A stretch of DNA of 64,000 nucleotides from Octopus vulgaris (lineage: Eukaryota): contig OX597827.1 of assembly GCA_951406725.2 (NCBI GenBank), positions 55,676,001 to 55,740,000 on the forward strand. The letters are read 5' to 3'. Shown one piece after another: positions 17,443 through 56,283 of the stretch. The number at the start of each line of letters is the position of its first letter. Position 1 is the stretch's first letter. The notes beneath the pieces were generated by a model, which saw only the letters and a list, made by a program, of their open reading frames with translations, was not told where the DNA came from and ran no database searches. A program made the translations under genes and the position numbers.

Positions 17443-19428
17443 AGCAGACGTGGAAGATAGGTTGTTCACATAAGTTGGAATTTCTCCGTTTTGACGGGGA
17501 TTTTTCAGATTTTTTTTTACGGTACCCTTGGAAATGACGGGGGGGGGGCGGTTTCGCATGTCGTAGAGCAGATTTCCGTCGATTTCCGTAAAAAACTTTT
17601 ATTTTTTTACATAAGTAATGAGAGCGAAAGAGACTAAGAGGAAGCGATTTTATGACGAGAAGGTTTCACTTTGAAATCGGCCTGTGTGTGTTTGATGGGG
17701 TGTGGGAGACAGACAGTATGTTGTGTAAGTGAAGTGCTTCTGTTAGTGTGTGCGAAGAGACAGAGAGAGTAATGTGTGAAAGAGAGAGATAACTGATTTT
17801 TTACTCGGTGTATGTGTATATGTATGTATGCATGTATGTGTATATGTATGTATGCATGTATCTATGTATGTGTGTGTGTGTAAGTATGTGTGTATGTATG
17901 TATGTATGGCCGATTCATCGTAATTTTTTACTCGGTGTATGTGTATATGTATGTCTGCATGTATGTGTGTGTGTGTATGTATCTATGTATGTGTATGTAT
18001 GTATGTGTGTATGTATGTATGGTCGATTCAGTGTAATTTTTTACTCGGTGTATGTGTATATGTATGTCTGCATGTATGTGTGTGTGTGTATGTATCTATG
18101 TGTGTGTGTGTGTGTAAGTATGTGTGTGTGTATGTATGTATGTATGTGTGTGTGTGTATGTATCTATGTATGTGTGTGTGTGTATGTATGTATGTATGTA
18201 CTCGGTGTATGTGTATATGTATGTCTGTCTCTTCGCACACACTAACAGAAGCACTTCACTTACACAACATACTGTCTGTCTCCCACACCCCATCAAACAC
18301 ACACAGGCCGACTTCAAAGTGAAACCTTCTCGTCGTAAAATCGCTTCCTCTTAGTCTCTTTCGCTCTCATTACTTATGTAAAAAAATAAAAGTTTTTTAC
18401 GGGGGATATCTTTTTATTAAAAAAATATATATTTTTTGAAAAATGATGATTCCTCCACCTCCGGTCCGATTTTGTGGACGCTACGCACTTACGAAGGAAA
18501 AATAAATGAACCTTAAAACAATTTAAGTAATAGAAAAAGGTTTAAAAGAAAATCCATGCGTCCTGGTGACAAACAAATCCATAGATACGGTATTGAATAT
18601 GGTTTCACTAAGGGCGATTTAGCTGTTGTTTTTAGCACATCTCAAGACCATCTGATACCGTCATTGTTTAGTTACGTGGAAATTATTTTTAAAAAACTGC
18701 CGTTCAAACCGAAAAGATCCCATTTGTATGTATCTATGTGTGTATGTATGGCCACACACACATACATACATACACACACACACATACATACACACACACA
18801 TACATGCATACATACATATACACCGAGTAAAAAATTTCAGTTATCTCTCTCTTTCACACATTACTCTCTCTGTCTCTTCACACACACTAACAGAAGCACT
18901 TCACTTACACAACATACTGTCTGTCTCCCACACCCCATCAAACACACACACACACACGTACATCAATGCTTCGGTAACTTCAAAAGAAATTCCCTCGTCA
19001 TAAAATCGCTTCCTCTTAGTCTCTTTCGCTCTCATTACTTCAAATGTTCCCGCAAGCCCATATGTAAAAAAATAAAAGTTTTTTACGGAAATCATCGACG
19101 GAAACGTGCTACTACAAACGAAAGATCACCAAAAAAAAAAAATTCACAAATATGGTGTTGAAAAATGTTTTCCTTTTTCTAACGGAAAGGTTTCACCTTT
19201 CGTTTTTAAGTGCGTAGTCCCCTCAAAAATCGACTAAAATCGGGAGTGAGGTAGGGTAAAAAATTACTATTTTTCAGAAATGTTTTTACTAAAAAGCTCC
19301 CCATCATTTTCTGTGAAAAAGATGCTCCTTCTTAATTTCCATGCAGAAAAGATTAAAAAAAACCCCGAAAAATTCCTGTCAAATGGAGAAATTCGAACTT
19401 ATGTGGGCGACCTTATCCCTGACGTCCA
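17443..19428. mobile_element. Related long-TIR/foldback transposon with nested inverted repeats and an internal minisatellite
   Basis: Termini resemble those of the 14812-15604 element; ~180-bp inverted arms at 17586-17764 and 18224-18402; third arm copy at ~18820-19100. Confidence 0.75.
17797..18225. repeat. Tandem ~115-160 bp units starting TTTTTTACTCGGTGTATG with TG/TA microsatellite bodies
   Basis: Units begin at ~17797, 17924, 18037 and (partial) 18199. Confidence 0.85.
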
Positions 19429-33665: not shown

Positions 33666-34327
33666 CTGCAAAAGTAAAAAATATATATATACAGAAAAAG
33701 ACTGAGAAAGAAAAAAAACAATGCAAATGAACTGGAAAGGCAGTATTTAGGAAAGTTAACAGTGTATATAAAGATCTGACAGCTGACTAAAGGCTAGATA
33801 TATTTGCTGTAATATTTACATTTGAAACTAAACATATCTTTTTTTTTTTCCTTACTTGTTTCAGTCATTTGACTGCGGCCATGCTGGAGCACTGCCTTTA
33901 ATCGAGCAACTCGACCCCGGGACTTATTCTTTTGTAAGCCCAGTACTTATTCTATCGGTCTCTTTTTGCCGAACCGCTAAGTGACGGGGATATAAACACA
34001 CCAGCATTGGTTGTCAAGCAATGCTAGGGGGACAAACACAGACACACAAACACACACACGCATACATATTTATATATGTATATACATATATACGACAGGC
34101 TCCTTTCAGTTTCCGTCTACCAAATCCACTCATAAGGCATTGGTCGGCCCGGGGCTATAGCAGAAGACACTTGCCCTAGATGCCACGCAGTGGGACTGAA
34201 CCCAGAACCATGTGGTTGGTTAGCAAGCTACTTACCACACAGCCACTCCTATGCCTACATGTTCAAATATCTAATATTTAGACTTGTTTTTATAGTCTAT
34301 ACTTGGGTGGATGTTTTAACATACATA

Positions 34328-34419
34328 TATCTCTGAAGAGCAGAAGCGTTGTCTATAAATGCTTATCAATATAGGATTTCATTATAGGGACAACTCTTCT
34401 GTGAAACGATTGTAAGATG
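34328..34419 (+). ncRNA. Type-I hammerhead ribozyme with extended stem II
   Basis: UAUCU-CUGAAGA-GCAGAAG...CUUCUGU-GAAA-CGAUUG-UA-AGAUG; all three stems can pair; core intact. Confidence 0.78.
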
Positions 34420-36016
34420 CTATAAATAATTAATTCAAGACTTTTAAACTGTCATATACATTATATATTTAAGCTTATACATATTTACATATATTTTTAT
34501 ACATATTTATATTTATTTATTTATACATTTTTAATACAGCAATTATTTTTCATACATGTATATCTTTCTGAGGAGTTTTGATATTGATTTCCTAATATTA
34601 ATAATAATATATTATTAAAATATATATATATATGAGTTAATTTGTTCCTGGTGACCACTCATAAAGTAAAAACTTGTAAAGCAGAGCAATAATTTCCCAT
34701 GGTAACAATGTTATAAATTGTAATTCGTTCTTAGAAAAATATTTTACCTATAAAATTTATAATACTCATAAATAAATGGCAATGTAGAATGTAAAGAATA
34801 TTTTATATAAAAAATTATGTCAAGATCACTTATAATAAAAAAATATTATTATTATTATAATTGTTTTCTGAATCACTTTCACTCACACTAAACTTGCGCA
34901 CACCATCACTTGTAGGTGCGATTGCTGATTCACAAGCACTTGCAGACAGGCTTGTAGATTTCTTTTTAAAAAACAAGTCAGGAGTTGTTTGCTTAGAAGA
35001 AGCTTTTTTCACTTTCTATACATTTCTCAGTAACACACGTAAAAATACACCCAATACACTCACGGAGTGGTTGGCGTTAGGAAGGGCATCCAGCTGTAGA
35101 AACACTGCCAGATCAGACTGGAGCCTGGTGCAGCCTCCAGGCTTCCCAAACCCTGGTTGAACCGTCCAACTCATGCTAGCATGGAAAACGGACGTTAAAT
35201 GATGATGATGACACAGAAGCATTTGTTATGGTAGTTGAAACTTTTGCACTTCATTCAAAATTTAGATCTTGTACTTGAAAAATTTCAGCTCACCATACAA
35301 AAGTGAGCTGAAAAATAAAACTCATACACCTGAGATCTTGTAAAGCAGGTCCTCGTAAAGTAAGGTGTTACTATATATATATGCATATATACACACAAAA
35401 ACCATCTGTGTCCAACTAGTCATCATGATTGACTGCTAACTCCACAAGTTTTTTATTTTCTCTCTGTTTATTTCCTCATGTTCACAAACAATACACAATG
35501 CTTCAAGCAAACTACAATACTCTTGTAATTGATATAAAGTTAGAAATACTGGACATTAAATGTTTGACAAAGAAATATCCAGAGGAAGGAAATTCTGAGT
35601 CAATTTTCATTATAACTTGAGTAGAGGAAATCAAATACTTTCAAATGCATGCGAAGAACTGGGAAGTTCTTAGCCATTAAAAAAACATTAAAAGTTCAAA
35701 TGTCTGAGAGGAATTTTTCTAAATAAGGTTATAATCTTTTCTCCCATTAATTTCACTATGAACATCACTGCTATTTTTCTATTGGTTTGATCTGTGATTA
35801 GCATCAGGGTATTTTATTTCTAGACATGTACATAGTACAAGACTAAATTAAAACAAGGAACCATTATTCCAAAAGGCTTATAGACATAATTATTCACTCA
35901 GCCACTGATACCTGTATATTATTTACTGTCAAATCATAATTGTAAAAGGAAAGTAATAGCATTTCTATAAAATAAAAACCTAATAAAATATAGAAAAAAA
36001 ATATCAAGTCACTTAC

Positions 36017-41105: not shown

Positions 41106-41441
41106 GAAATATTGAATTTCTAAATCTCTCGTAGAGACATGTACGGTGGTGGGGCGATAGAATGGTTGTATACTGTCAATCTAACAAGAACGTGACAGTA
41201 GGGGGTACACCACCGCTGTATAGCCCTAGGAAGCATCGAACGCCTCCTGATAGCTTTGACACATTTTTTTTTTCCCTGTGTCCTTATATACATCCTTGTC
41301 TCCCCTTCGTATATGTATATAAGGACACAGGAAAAAAAAATGTGTCAAAGCTATCAGGAGGCGTTCGATGCTTCCTAGGGCTATACAGCGGTGGTGTACC
41401 CCCTACTGTCACGTTCTTGTTAGATTGACAGTATACAACCA
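41106..41441. mobile_element. Young asymmetric palindromic insertion (~133-bp arms) with TSD
   Basis: 41160-41293 is nearly the exact reverse complement of 41313-41444; ttcataaggtaa at 41094-41105 and 41442-41453; same terminus also present at 23648-23725. Confidence 0.85.
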
Positions 41442-42243
41442 TTCATAAGGTAATTATTACAAATATATGTTCAAATTCTAATGATGTGAAAATATTTATT
41501 GGTGATAAAACAAAAGAATTATAACTGTCTCTCATGTCACCTTTGTTTTATTAATCTTTGTTTAAAACAAATCTTTTAGAATAATATAAATAATTGTATA
41601 GGAAATTGTTAATAAAATATTTTTATATAACTATTTAGAGACTTCATCCATTGCTTACTTTAACACTAATGTTTGTTGCAAGCATTCAGGCCAGCTTCAA
41701 AGATAACTTTTGCCTTTACACTCCTGAGTTTTGGTGGCCCCGAGGAGAGTAATGGCTCCCTTGATTTCTTATCTTTGTTTTCCATTCTCACACGAGTTAG
41801 ACAGAATCTTCTGAGGTAGATTTTCTATGGCTGGATGCTTTTCCTGTCACCAACCCATGAGGAAACATTTCCCCATTACCAGACATGCTTGTCACAAAGG
41901 ATGGGGAATGAACGAGACTCATTTATAATCATCATGCGATGTCAAGACAATCACACACATACATATATAACATATTGGGTATATATGATACATATATATC
42001 AATATATGTATATATCTTTGTCAGTAAATCATAAATCCAAAAAAAAGCAGCAGTGTATTTAGATAGTTATGGCCGATTCACAGGGTTACCCAAGGTTTCA
42101 TGTTCATAAAGCACTTGGCTCTACATATGTCTTGCTAGACCCTAATTAAATTAGGGTCTGACAAGACATATGTAAAGCCAAGCGCTTTATGGATGCGGAA
42201 CCCTAGGTAACCCTATGAACCGGCCATAAGTATCTTTATCTAA

Positions 42244-42900: not shown

Positions 42901-43414
42901 TTAACCCTTCAGCATTCAGATTATTCTGTCAAATGCAATGCTTCTTGATGCCCTTCCTAATGTCAATCACTCCAAGAGTGTAGTGGGTGCTTTTACGTGC
43001 CACTGGCACGAGGGCCAGTCAGGCCGTTGCCAGTACCGCTTGACTTGCCCTTGCGCAGGTGGCACATAAAAGCACCCACTACACTCTCAGAGTAGTTGGT
43101 GTTAGGAAGGGCATCCATCTGTAGAAACTCTGCCAGATCAGATCGGAGTCTGGTGCAGCCATCTGGTTCGCCAGACCTCAGTCAAATTGTCCAACCCATG
43201 CTAGCATGGAAAGCGGACGTTAAACGATGATGATGATGATTGTTTTGAAATAATCATTCGTTATCTAGTAGCTTTGAGATTTTGATGATGTGATTGTTTA
43301 TTTTTTACAATGACATTATAGGATAGATGGCAAAGGCCAGATCTGGCCAGTTTGAACATAAAACAGGTAGGATATTTTGGCTGCATATGACTGGATTGAA
43401 TGTTAAAGGGTTAA
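42901..43414. mobile_element. piggyBac-like MITE (TTAA-CCCT...AGGG-TTAA) with nested family C insertion; copies 23291-23497, 40453-40685, 46887-47085, 49280-49470, 54683-54830; related MITE 53120-53352
   Basis: TTAA ends, short TIR, shared internal sequence across copies. Confidence 0.75.
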
Positions 43415-43955
43415 GACAGTAAATCAAAAGATTAGTAAATCAATATATTGTAACATCATTTTATCTTTGCAGATGAAGTTAATCTGAAAATTATAATATT
43501 TGACAACATATCTCTAACATTTAGCATCTCAAGTCTCTTGTACTTGCTGCATGAGATAAAGTAGGTCCTCTGAGTTTTATCAAAATGTTTCTTGTGGTTT
43601 TGGTTCTTATATTATCAAGCAGTAAGTCTAGCTGCAATGTCTCAAAATTCTTGAGGCTAGATTTTCTTTTATGTTTATCTATATTTCAATATTTTTACAT
43701 GATAAATAAGTCTGATAAAACTTTCCAATGATATTTATGAAATAACTGTTTTATTTGGAGACTACTCTCAGTCAGGAACAGTAGTAAATAAGTTGTGTTG
43801 AATTTCTCAACCTGATGTGAGTGTGTGTGCATTTACATGCAAGCATATATTTGTCAAATATATTATTGAAGCATTGTTTTACAGTTAGATGCCCTTGCTG
43901 TTACCAATCCCTAACTGTCTGTCAAACACAAATATATATATATATATATCCATCA

Positions 43956-44049
43956 CAGCTGATCTTACCAATTGGTTTCGTGTTAGGGGTACAACGGATT
44001 GTTAGTTAACAATCTGATTATATAACTCCATGCTCATCAGAGATAGCTG
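43956..44049 (-). ncRNA. Type-I hammerhead ribozyme with extended stem II (sense in an EXOC6 intron)
   Basis: CAGCUAUCU-CUGAUGA-G...C-GAAA-CCAAUUGG-UA-AGAU(C)AGCUG; palindromic stem III, 9-bp stem I. Confidence 0.82.
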
Positions 44050-44992
44050 ATACGGAATGAAATATGGTGACTGCTCTCTATTGTTGGAGGTGAAAGGACA
44101 CATCCAGTTTGTGGTTGCTGTAAAGTGATGAAAAGAAACCAAAGGGATTTAGTTAAGAGTTATGTCCCTTGGTACCGAGTCATCGCTACTGCAAGTTGGC
44201 AAGAGTTTATGAAGTGTTTGTAGGAATTATATATACATATATATATATCTTATATACATGCACACATACACATATAAATAAATATATACATATATAATGC
44301 TTTTCTCAGGAGACAAGGGCTGTACCATAACTTCTGTAAAAAATGCCCCGTCAGTCATGAATGTCTATGGGATTGCACCTAGAAGATTCCCCTCTGAGGC
44401 ACAAGTCCAGGCAAGGTTGTTTGTGGAAGATTAGCAGTCACTCATGCATATCAGTCTCCCCTCTCAAAGTTACCGATGTTGTCCAAGGGAAAAGCAAAGG
44501 CTGATACAGCTTGGCACCAGGTGAGGTCACAACTCATTTCTACAGCTGAATAAATTGGAACAACATGAAATAGTGTTTTATTCAAGAACACAACACACAG
44601 GCCAGTCCAGGACCAAACTCATTACTATGATTGTGAGCCTGACGCTCTAATCAGTGGGCCATGTGTCTTCACATAACCTCTGTTAAGCTCTCCAAAAGGA
44701 GACTGAGAAAAAGTGGGGCTGTGTGGTCAAGAAAGAAAATTGGTATACATAGTGTTATTATTAAACCTGTAACATCACCCAAAACAGAATCTTTGGATTG
44801 TGCCAAAATTCCTGGCAATGAGTCAATTCTTTTCTGGCCCTAACTTAACTTTCAATAGGTCTTGTAGAGTAAAAGCAGAGTATTATTAATGTTATGAAGA
44901 ATCATGAAAAAAATCTAATAATGCAAAGTATGGGAATCAACTTTGTCAAAAAATTAGAATGAAGTTTAAAAAGCCTTTAAGATGGAACTTAC

Positions 44993-55417: not shown

Positions 55418-55455
<38 letters not shown>

Positions 55456-55505
55456 CACACACATATATATATCTGTAAATGTAATATGTGACAATTATTC
55501 GGTAG

Positions 55506-55573
55506 CCATGATAAAACTCCAAGTTTCGAATGCCAAGGTGGAAATCCACGCCACCATCTCTTCAGTTATCTGG
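55506..55573 (-). ncRNA. Type-I hammerhead ribozyme overlapping a 56-bp-arm hairpin (55473-55643)
   Basis: CCAGAUAA-CUGAAGA-GAUG...CAUUC-GAAA-CUUGGAG-UU-UUAUC(A)UGG. Confidence 0.78.
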
Positions 55574-56283
55574 CCATCGGAAAAATACGAAACTCGGAGT
55601 TTTATCATGGCTACCGAATAATTGTCACATATTACATTTACAGTTAAATTCCTCTATTTACATAATATCGAGGTCTCTTTCATTCTTTTGTTGTCTTACC
55701 ATTTTAATCAATATATATATATATATATATATGGTTGAAATGTACAAAAAACAAAAGGTAGAAAGAGATGAGGGAACAACAAGCAAGGTGTATTAATTTG
55801 ATGCTGGGGAAAAATGTAAAAGTCTTTGACATTTCCAGCCTGTGCTCTTTGACAGAAAAGAATGAGAAAAAAATGGAGAGAAAGGAAAAAAAATGGAGAG
55901 AGATAAAAAATGTATATATATGTATGTATGCATGCATGTATGTATGTTAAAGACAATGTTTTTTGTATTTGGGATCCCTTTGATCCTAGTTTGTTTGGTC
56001 AGGGATGACTTGGCACTAAACAACAACAATTATCACATATAAATAATATTAACACATTTTATCCTACTTGTAATGTATAATGGTAGCTTCAGTAAAATTC
56101 GTTTTCCTGTTGTTGTTAATATAAAGAAACAAGAAAAAAACTTTTCTGCTTGTATTATGTACAACATTGCAGTTAGTCATAAAACAAAGCAGTAAAATTA
56201 TGCCATATTGATACTTTAAGGAAATATATTTTAAAGTTAAACTGATGTGTGTGTGTGAGAGGGAAGGGCCCTGATAAACTTAC

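Follow-up and report, generated by a model that had tools for sequence, protein, structure and literature searches.

A hammerhead motif with a long stem II in an octopus EXOC6 intron, a probable decayed remnant of a Hydra-clade Penelope-like element

Hammerhead ribozymes are located in the terminal repeats of Penelope-like elements (PLEs), where the minimal metazoan forms cleave poorly in vitro and where cutting of the precursor RNA has been proposed as their role (Cervera and De la Pena, PMC4209133). Within the PLEs, the Hydra clade is described as combining a DKT motif, a CxCX5C linker, the absence of CCHH, a (TA)n insertion and a hammerhead, the last being carried by all Hydra PLEs, and a head-to-head inverted arrangement is described for PLE insertions (Craig et al., PMC8557442). 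One such hammerhead, Hydra-1_Obim, was published from Octopus bimaculoides (PMC8557442, Files S1-S2), and a count in the giant squid genome gave 235 hammerhead loci (PMC6962438).

Against this background, we analyzed a 64,000-nucleotide stretch of the Octopus vulgaris genome (contig OX597827.1, positions 55,676,001 to 55,740,000; hereafter the window), which carries a type I hammerhead motif on its minus strand. We put at about 85% the probability that this motif is the 3' terminal-repeat hammerhead of a Hydra-clade PLE, truncated within an EXOC6 intron and predicted to be inactive through decay of its stem II base. An earlier, sequence-only reading of the motif had not named a PLE origin.

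The hammerhead motif and its host intron

Based on the minus-strand sequence, a constrained fold and the family alignment, the whole motif spans positions 44056 to 43949. As that reading had claimed, the core is intact, with CUGAUGA (C3-A9) at 44040-44034 and GAAA (G12-A15.1) at 43979-43976, both supported by the sequence and by the family columns; all 11 of the 11 core letters are present, together with A17 at position H17. The GUA cleavage triplet is likewise present, at 43968-43966, and the hammerhead consensus places the predicted scissile bond between 43966 and 43965. Stem III was found to be palindromic, as proposed, with 3 bp and an AAUU loop in the self-complementary sequence ACC-AAUU-GGU (43976-43967); its perfect palindrome is the product of a CpG change at 43973, where 51 of 77 family copies carry G. 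The stem II region, counted between CUGAUGA and GAAA (44033-43980), is 54 nt long, in agreement with the earlier estimate of about 54 nt.

Stem I pairs the strand 44056-44041 with 43965-43949, as placed by the fold and the family alignment. It forms 9 bp with a bulged C43961, followed by a 2x2 loop and 5 further base pairs (44056-44052 with 43953-43949), so that stems I (4+5+5 bp) and III (3 bp) close around the core and stem I is open-ended. The 9 bp and the single bulge described earlier were therefore recovered, but the loop and the five outer pairs had been missed, and the clean form of the stem rests on the T at 44043, a minority letter found in 7/77 copies. The pair 44043-43963 is open in 57 of the 65 aligned copies, and the family stem I thus keeps an internal loop, which might serve in a loop I-loop II tertiary contact.

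A strict hammerhead descriptor matched the window twice, whereas 100 resampled windows gave 0.01 matches on average, indicating that the motif does not arise by chance. The Rfam hammerhead models left the motif unmatched at the gathering score and at E values up to 10, likely due to the long stem II.

The motif lies in a GT..AG intron of the EXOC6/Sec15 gene (44992-42681, minus strand), which was delimited by its splice ends and by exons matching Pfam Sec15_C on either side; the N-terminal exons of EXOC6 are located just outside the end of the window. The two exons directly flanking the intron, putatively 45047-44993 upstream and 42680-42608 downstream, had no Pfam match of their own and were placed by splice sites and open frames between the Sec15_C matches. 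Since the Sec15_C exons are on the minus strand and the GT/AG intron lies between open exons, the motif is in the EXOC6 sense orientation, which bears out the earlier placement in this intron in the transcribed orientation. The same intron holds SINE-like, very high-copy short repeats at 44346-44675 and 42944-43240.

A dispersed repeat family and its parent element

The genome searched comprised 2.8 Gb in 227 contigs. An exact-core pattern gave 216 matches, whereas its reversed control gave none, and the motif is therefore not specific to this locus. A 171-nt query returned 1672 first-look candidates, and among the 40 scored, the other copies match at 83-89%. When the window copy was aligned with family copies by blastn, the match covered 44191-43943 (reaching 44259 in one case) at 76-89% identity. 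The locus thus holds an ORF-less 3' terminal fragment of about 250 bp: no PLE protein match was found in the window, the ORF of this copy being lost, and the copy is also without the 25-130 nt that other copies carry past its 3' end. It is flanked by an (AT)9 microsatellite bordering the 3' end of the element (43932-43949) and by a TA-rich microsatellite just past its 5' end (44228-44296), as for a (TA)n insertion, and many copies of the family end in microsatellites.

To describe the family structure, the named structure was scored on 65 of 77 copies, the 12 with indels being left out. With 39 pairs, 84% of the cells were paired, against 30-40% in slid controls, and the family stem II forms a 22-bp interrupted rod. 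The pair 44027-43986 is GC in 34/65 copies and AU in 19/65, tracking subfamilies, and all eight basal stem II pairs are kept in 12 of the 77 copies. In 500 shuffles, two of four covariation measures beat all shuffled sets (two-sided changed cells, 73 vs 49, and the covariation score), although relatedness among copies inflates both; the remaining two did not (151 and 202 of 500). When the 65 copies were folded jointly with RNAalifold, the result held 7 pairs (-0.62 kcal/mol) and no hammerhead, a failure that we attribute to CpG decay in every copy. We read the family hammerhead structure as real in the source elements.

Longer copies continue upstream into a degraded ORF with reverse transcriptase (RT) and GIY-YIG-type regions, placing the hammerhead downstream of an RT-endonuclease ORF. 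Such copies (L044/L059, L050 and L165) align at approximately 37-60% with the 607-aa ORF of L065, a sister family of younger age, over both the RT and the endonuclease. In L165, the DKT motif, the RT and the hammerhead lie in order on one strand, and FSDKTK, in which DKG is changed to DKT, occurs in this hammerhead-bearing copy and in L172. A CxCX5C linker was found in 17 of 24 linker-spanning matches. By eye, the stretch from the VVY to the YVG strand shows no paired Cys, which may correspond to the absence of CCHH. Pfam gave no match on four protein fragments of the family and a sub-threshold GIY-YIG match (E=0.013) on the L065 ORF of the sister family. Among loci found through the upstream coding sequence alone, as DNA or protein, 55 of 84 have a full or partial match to the motif. 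Taken together, the DKT motif, the CxCX5C linker, the RT/GIY-YIG-type ORF, the (TA)n and the hammerhead point to a Hydra-clade PLE as the probable parent, an assignment made from sequence motifs. A Neptune-clade PLE was considered and rejected, as that clade needs CX2-5CxxC and DKG, and the family has CxCX5C and DKT instead.

The arrangement of the copies also bears on whether the locus is a monomer of a non-LTR retrozyme, that is, of a tandem hammerhead repeat giving rise to a small circular RNA. A type I hammerhead in a repeat of about 250 bp with low GC would suit such an element, and descent of retrozymes from PLE terminal repeats has been reported (bioRxiv 10.64898/2026.07.22.740005). However, the ragged 5' ends of the copies run into the PLE ORF, several close family pairs are inverted, head-to-head and not head-to-tail, and the window holds no second copy of the 43949-44056 hammerhead family and no tandem array at the locus. 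This reading is already largely refuted, and we regard its chance of being right as close to nil.

Several other elements were observed along the way. On the plus strand of the window, positions 34326-34420 hold a second hammerhead, with CUGAAGA, GUA and a 63-nt well-paired stem II, in the orientation opposite to EXOC6. It belongs to a young repeat family, whose other scored copies match at 95-98%; an ORF was looked for within 1.5 kb of seven copies and none was found. This motif is a better candidate than 43949-44056 for an active long-stem II hammerhead. Long near-perfect inverted repeats at 17586-18950 (179 nt at 99%) and 41160-41444 (120 nt at 98%, the arms separated by 45 nt) are possibly young inverted element insertions. 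The L064/L065 sister family (L065:2607-4427, plus strand) is a young Hydra-clade PLE family, in which many copies besides the one with the 607-aa frame have kept long open frames; its hammerhead-like core reads CCGAAGA, not CUGAAGA, in these copies. Head-to-head terminal fragments of this younger family lie at 55434-55732 of the window, and their minus-strand half holds a third hammerhead, with its core at 55565, within the gene and in the EXOC6 sense orientation. Elsewhere in the genome, a copy at L035:1000-1300 shows a local tandem triplication with a 77-nt period, in which the hammerhead piece is deleted at the core/stem II junction and the core is broken. Near one Hydra-clade copy, L058:5026-5769 (plus strand) holds part of another PLE-type endonuclease, this one with Cys pairs, which we take to be of the canonical, Neptune-like kind. 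Approximately 2 kb from another PLE copy, L061:400-1305 (minus strand) holds an intronless 302-aa open frame that is methyltransferase-like (GCGSG, NPPY) and presumably resembles HemK/N6AMT1.

Decay of the window copy and its predicted activity

Compared with the commonest letters of its subfamily, the window copy differs in 14 of 130 columns (JC 0.116), within the range of 7-40 seen in sister copies, and 7 of the 14 differences fall at CpG sites. On a published scale in which JC 0.09 corresponds to 25 My and 0.2 to 56 My (PMC13282606), this would place the copy very roughly at 30 My, a figure inflated by the CpG changes. The sequence-only reading had suggested CpG decay at the base of stem II (GCG to GCA and CGC to CAC), and the 77 copies confirm it: position 44031 is G in 49/77 and 43981 is G in 47/77, and both are A here. 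A further change at 44027 breaks a third pair. Four of the eight basal pairs of stem II are left, none of them adjacent, making this the sole copy of the 77 without a stacked pair. Near-intact is thus an apt description of the core, whereas stem II does not merit it.

Next, folding predictions, which leave aside tertiary contacts and Mg2+, were examined for the window copy. A stable stem II closed by G10.1-C11.1 was not found, the predicted probability of this pair being at most 0.001 in four contexts. Instead, a misfold pairing the core with stem III is predicted with a probability of 0.5-0.6 locally, and stem I is lost in wider sequence contexts (predicted probabilities of 0.02 and 0.00). 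Because the base of stem II is broken and G10.1-C11.1 is predicted to form so rarely, the window hammerhead is likely inactive now according to these models. This supports the earlier suggestion that it may have been attenuated, the active fold being predicted to be rare. The companion suggestion, that it could cut EXOC6 pre-mRNA, is unsupported: the window offers no second family copy for a dimer, and the probable orthologue described below shows no excess conservation.

A weak residual cleavage within the same PLE origin would entail slow nicking of some EXOC6 pre-mRNA, with splicing and the gene unaffected. The intact core, GUA, stem I and 3-bp stem III are compatible with it, G10.1-C11.1 is still able to pair, and the stable upper stem II hairpin (predicted probability of 0.98-0.99 locally) keeps the two strands close. 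Constraining the copy to the hammerhead fold adds only 5.0 kcal/mol relative to the ensemble, which places it 17th among the 63 scorable copies (14 of 77 could not be scored), and natural twister ribozymes are described as coping with many imperfections (PMC11662667). Splicing still takes place in introns that a slow hammerhead cuts (PMC2995048, citing Dye 2006 and Fong 2009), so that a slow cut would probably be tolerated by EXOC6. Nevertheless, G10.1-C11.1 stands alone, its distal neighbours being mismatched, and both the competing fold that sequesters the core and the loss of stem I in wider contexts weigh against cleavage. We therefore consider residual activity unlikely.

To understand how such damage arises, substitutions were counted in an unbiased set of copies, found without using the ribozyme sequence. 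Strong core conservation (8/460 vs 281/3634) had been a candidate result but was rejected, since it was mostly gone in these copies and reflects ascertainment bias. In the unbiased set, A/T core sites were changed in 18/339 cases (5.3%) vs 143/2200 elsewhere (6.5%; p=0.47), and G/C core sites in 11/153 (7.2%) vs 171/1195 others (14.3%; p=0.016). The excess retention at G/C core sites may be due to subfamily structure or to weak selection. The free core position N7 varies (T35, A10, G3, C3), which is what selection on the source elements would predict. The essential G12 is itself a CpG site and behaves like the others: it is mutated in 13 of the 46 unbiased copies, suggesting that the damage is ordinary post-insertion decay and not tuning. 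Overall, the data fit post-insertion decay, with selection acting on source elements only.

A domesticated ribozyme, deliberately attenuated and regulating EXOC6 mRNA output or splicing in the manner of the conserved intronic hammerheads of amniotes, was weighed against this decay. The sense orientation within an intron could be cited for it, although the orientation of one copy amounts to a coin toss. A 97-nt contig under another species label (run X5) differs at 2 of 91 positions over 43959-44049 and has single-copy-like depth; from its sequence it is probably the orthologue, in which case the insertion likely predates the split from that species. Yet, with one probable orthologue, 2/91 is not significantly lower than the 29/572 differences of the flank (P=0.16). 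The subfamily divergence of 14/130 is likewise that of an ordinary sister copy, and by stacking the stem II is the worst preserved of the 77. We hold domestication to be extremely unlikely. A presumed RNA run (X15) contained only short paralogous pieces, which have no bearing on expression or cleavage.

Under the preferred reading of a decayed PLE terminal fragment, the ribozyme of the active element would likely have cut the precursor RNA after GUA near its 3' end, defining the transcript ends. A 5'-truncated reverse transcript was then probably inserted at a TA microsatellite and decayed neutrally. The remaining copy is likely transcribed passively within EXOC6 pre-mRNA and removed with the intron.

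Comparison with described hammerheads

As a single locus, the motif is a fossil of little importance. The at least 216 core-intact copies of the family, in varied states of decay, would constitute a natural mutant library for the cleavage requirements of PLE hammerheads, and the same copies could show whether active ones are purged from sense-strand introns. A bolder proposal would have octopus PLEs carry a hammerhead of new architecture, its short stem II exchanged for a 22-bp rod, with intronic core-intact copies in the hundreds, the EXOC6 one included, still nicking host pre-mRNAs and shaping splicing or transcript output. We consider this very unlikely.

Among described systems, the intronic hammerheads conserved in amniotes (RECK and others; PMC6155905) share the type I fold, the intronic position, the sense strand and a retroelement ancestry. 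They are, however, near single-copy and highly conserved, whereas the present motif belongs to a family of hundreds of copies in decay, and its own stem II is broken. The metazoan non-LTR retrozymes (PMC7229834) are likewise short, low-GC repeats with a type I hammerhead; in contrast to them, the present family shows no head-to-tail tandems, and its longer copies are contiguous with a PLE ORF.

The PLE terminal-repeat hammerheads of Cervera and De la Pena (2014, PMC4209133) are closer. As here, they are mostly scattered single motifs left by truncated PLEs, with inverted pairs spaced at 100-700 bp, a larger-than-usual helix II, high heterogeneity among copies, a conserved G10.1-C11.1 and a palindromic helix III. 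The present motif differs in that stem III has three true base pairs, unlike the minimal form, helix II is far longer and no extra nucleotide lies between A9 and G10.1.

The Hydra-clade PLE hammerheads (Craig et al. 2021, PMC8557442) share the GIY-YIG-type C-terminal endonuclease, DKT, CxCX5C, the TA microsatellite at the insertion, a type I hammerhead near the 3' end and a short self-complementary stem III, and the published list likewise includes hammerheads with A at the cleavage position. The sequence of the Hydra-1_Obim hammerhead differs from that of the window family, as compared by eye and for the hammerheads only, and the window family therefore appears to be another one. No description of a family with a 54-nt stem II was found in the literature covered, outside which lay Repbase/Dfam and most of the PMC8557442 supplement, and it may be catalogued under another name. 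In the 26 Hydra rows of File S2, stem II has 3-7 bp and loops of 3-10 nt, for a total of at most about 26 nt, compared with 54 nt and a 22-bp rod here, approximately twice the longest listed for the clade. PLE hammerheads of the Hydra clade are already known; what is modestly new is the long, rod-like form of stem II, and the family extends the catalogue of PLE hammerheads slightly.
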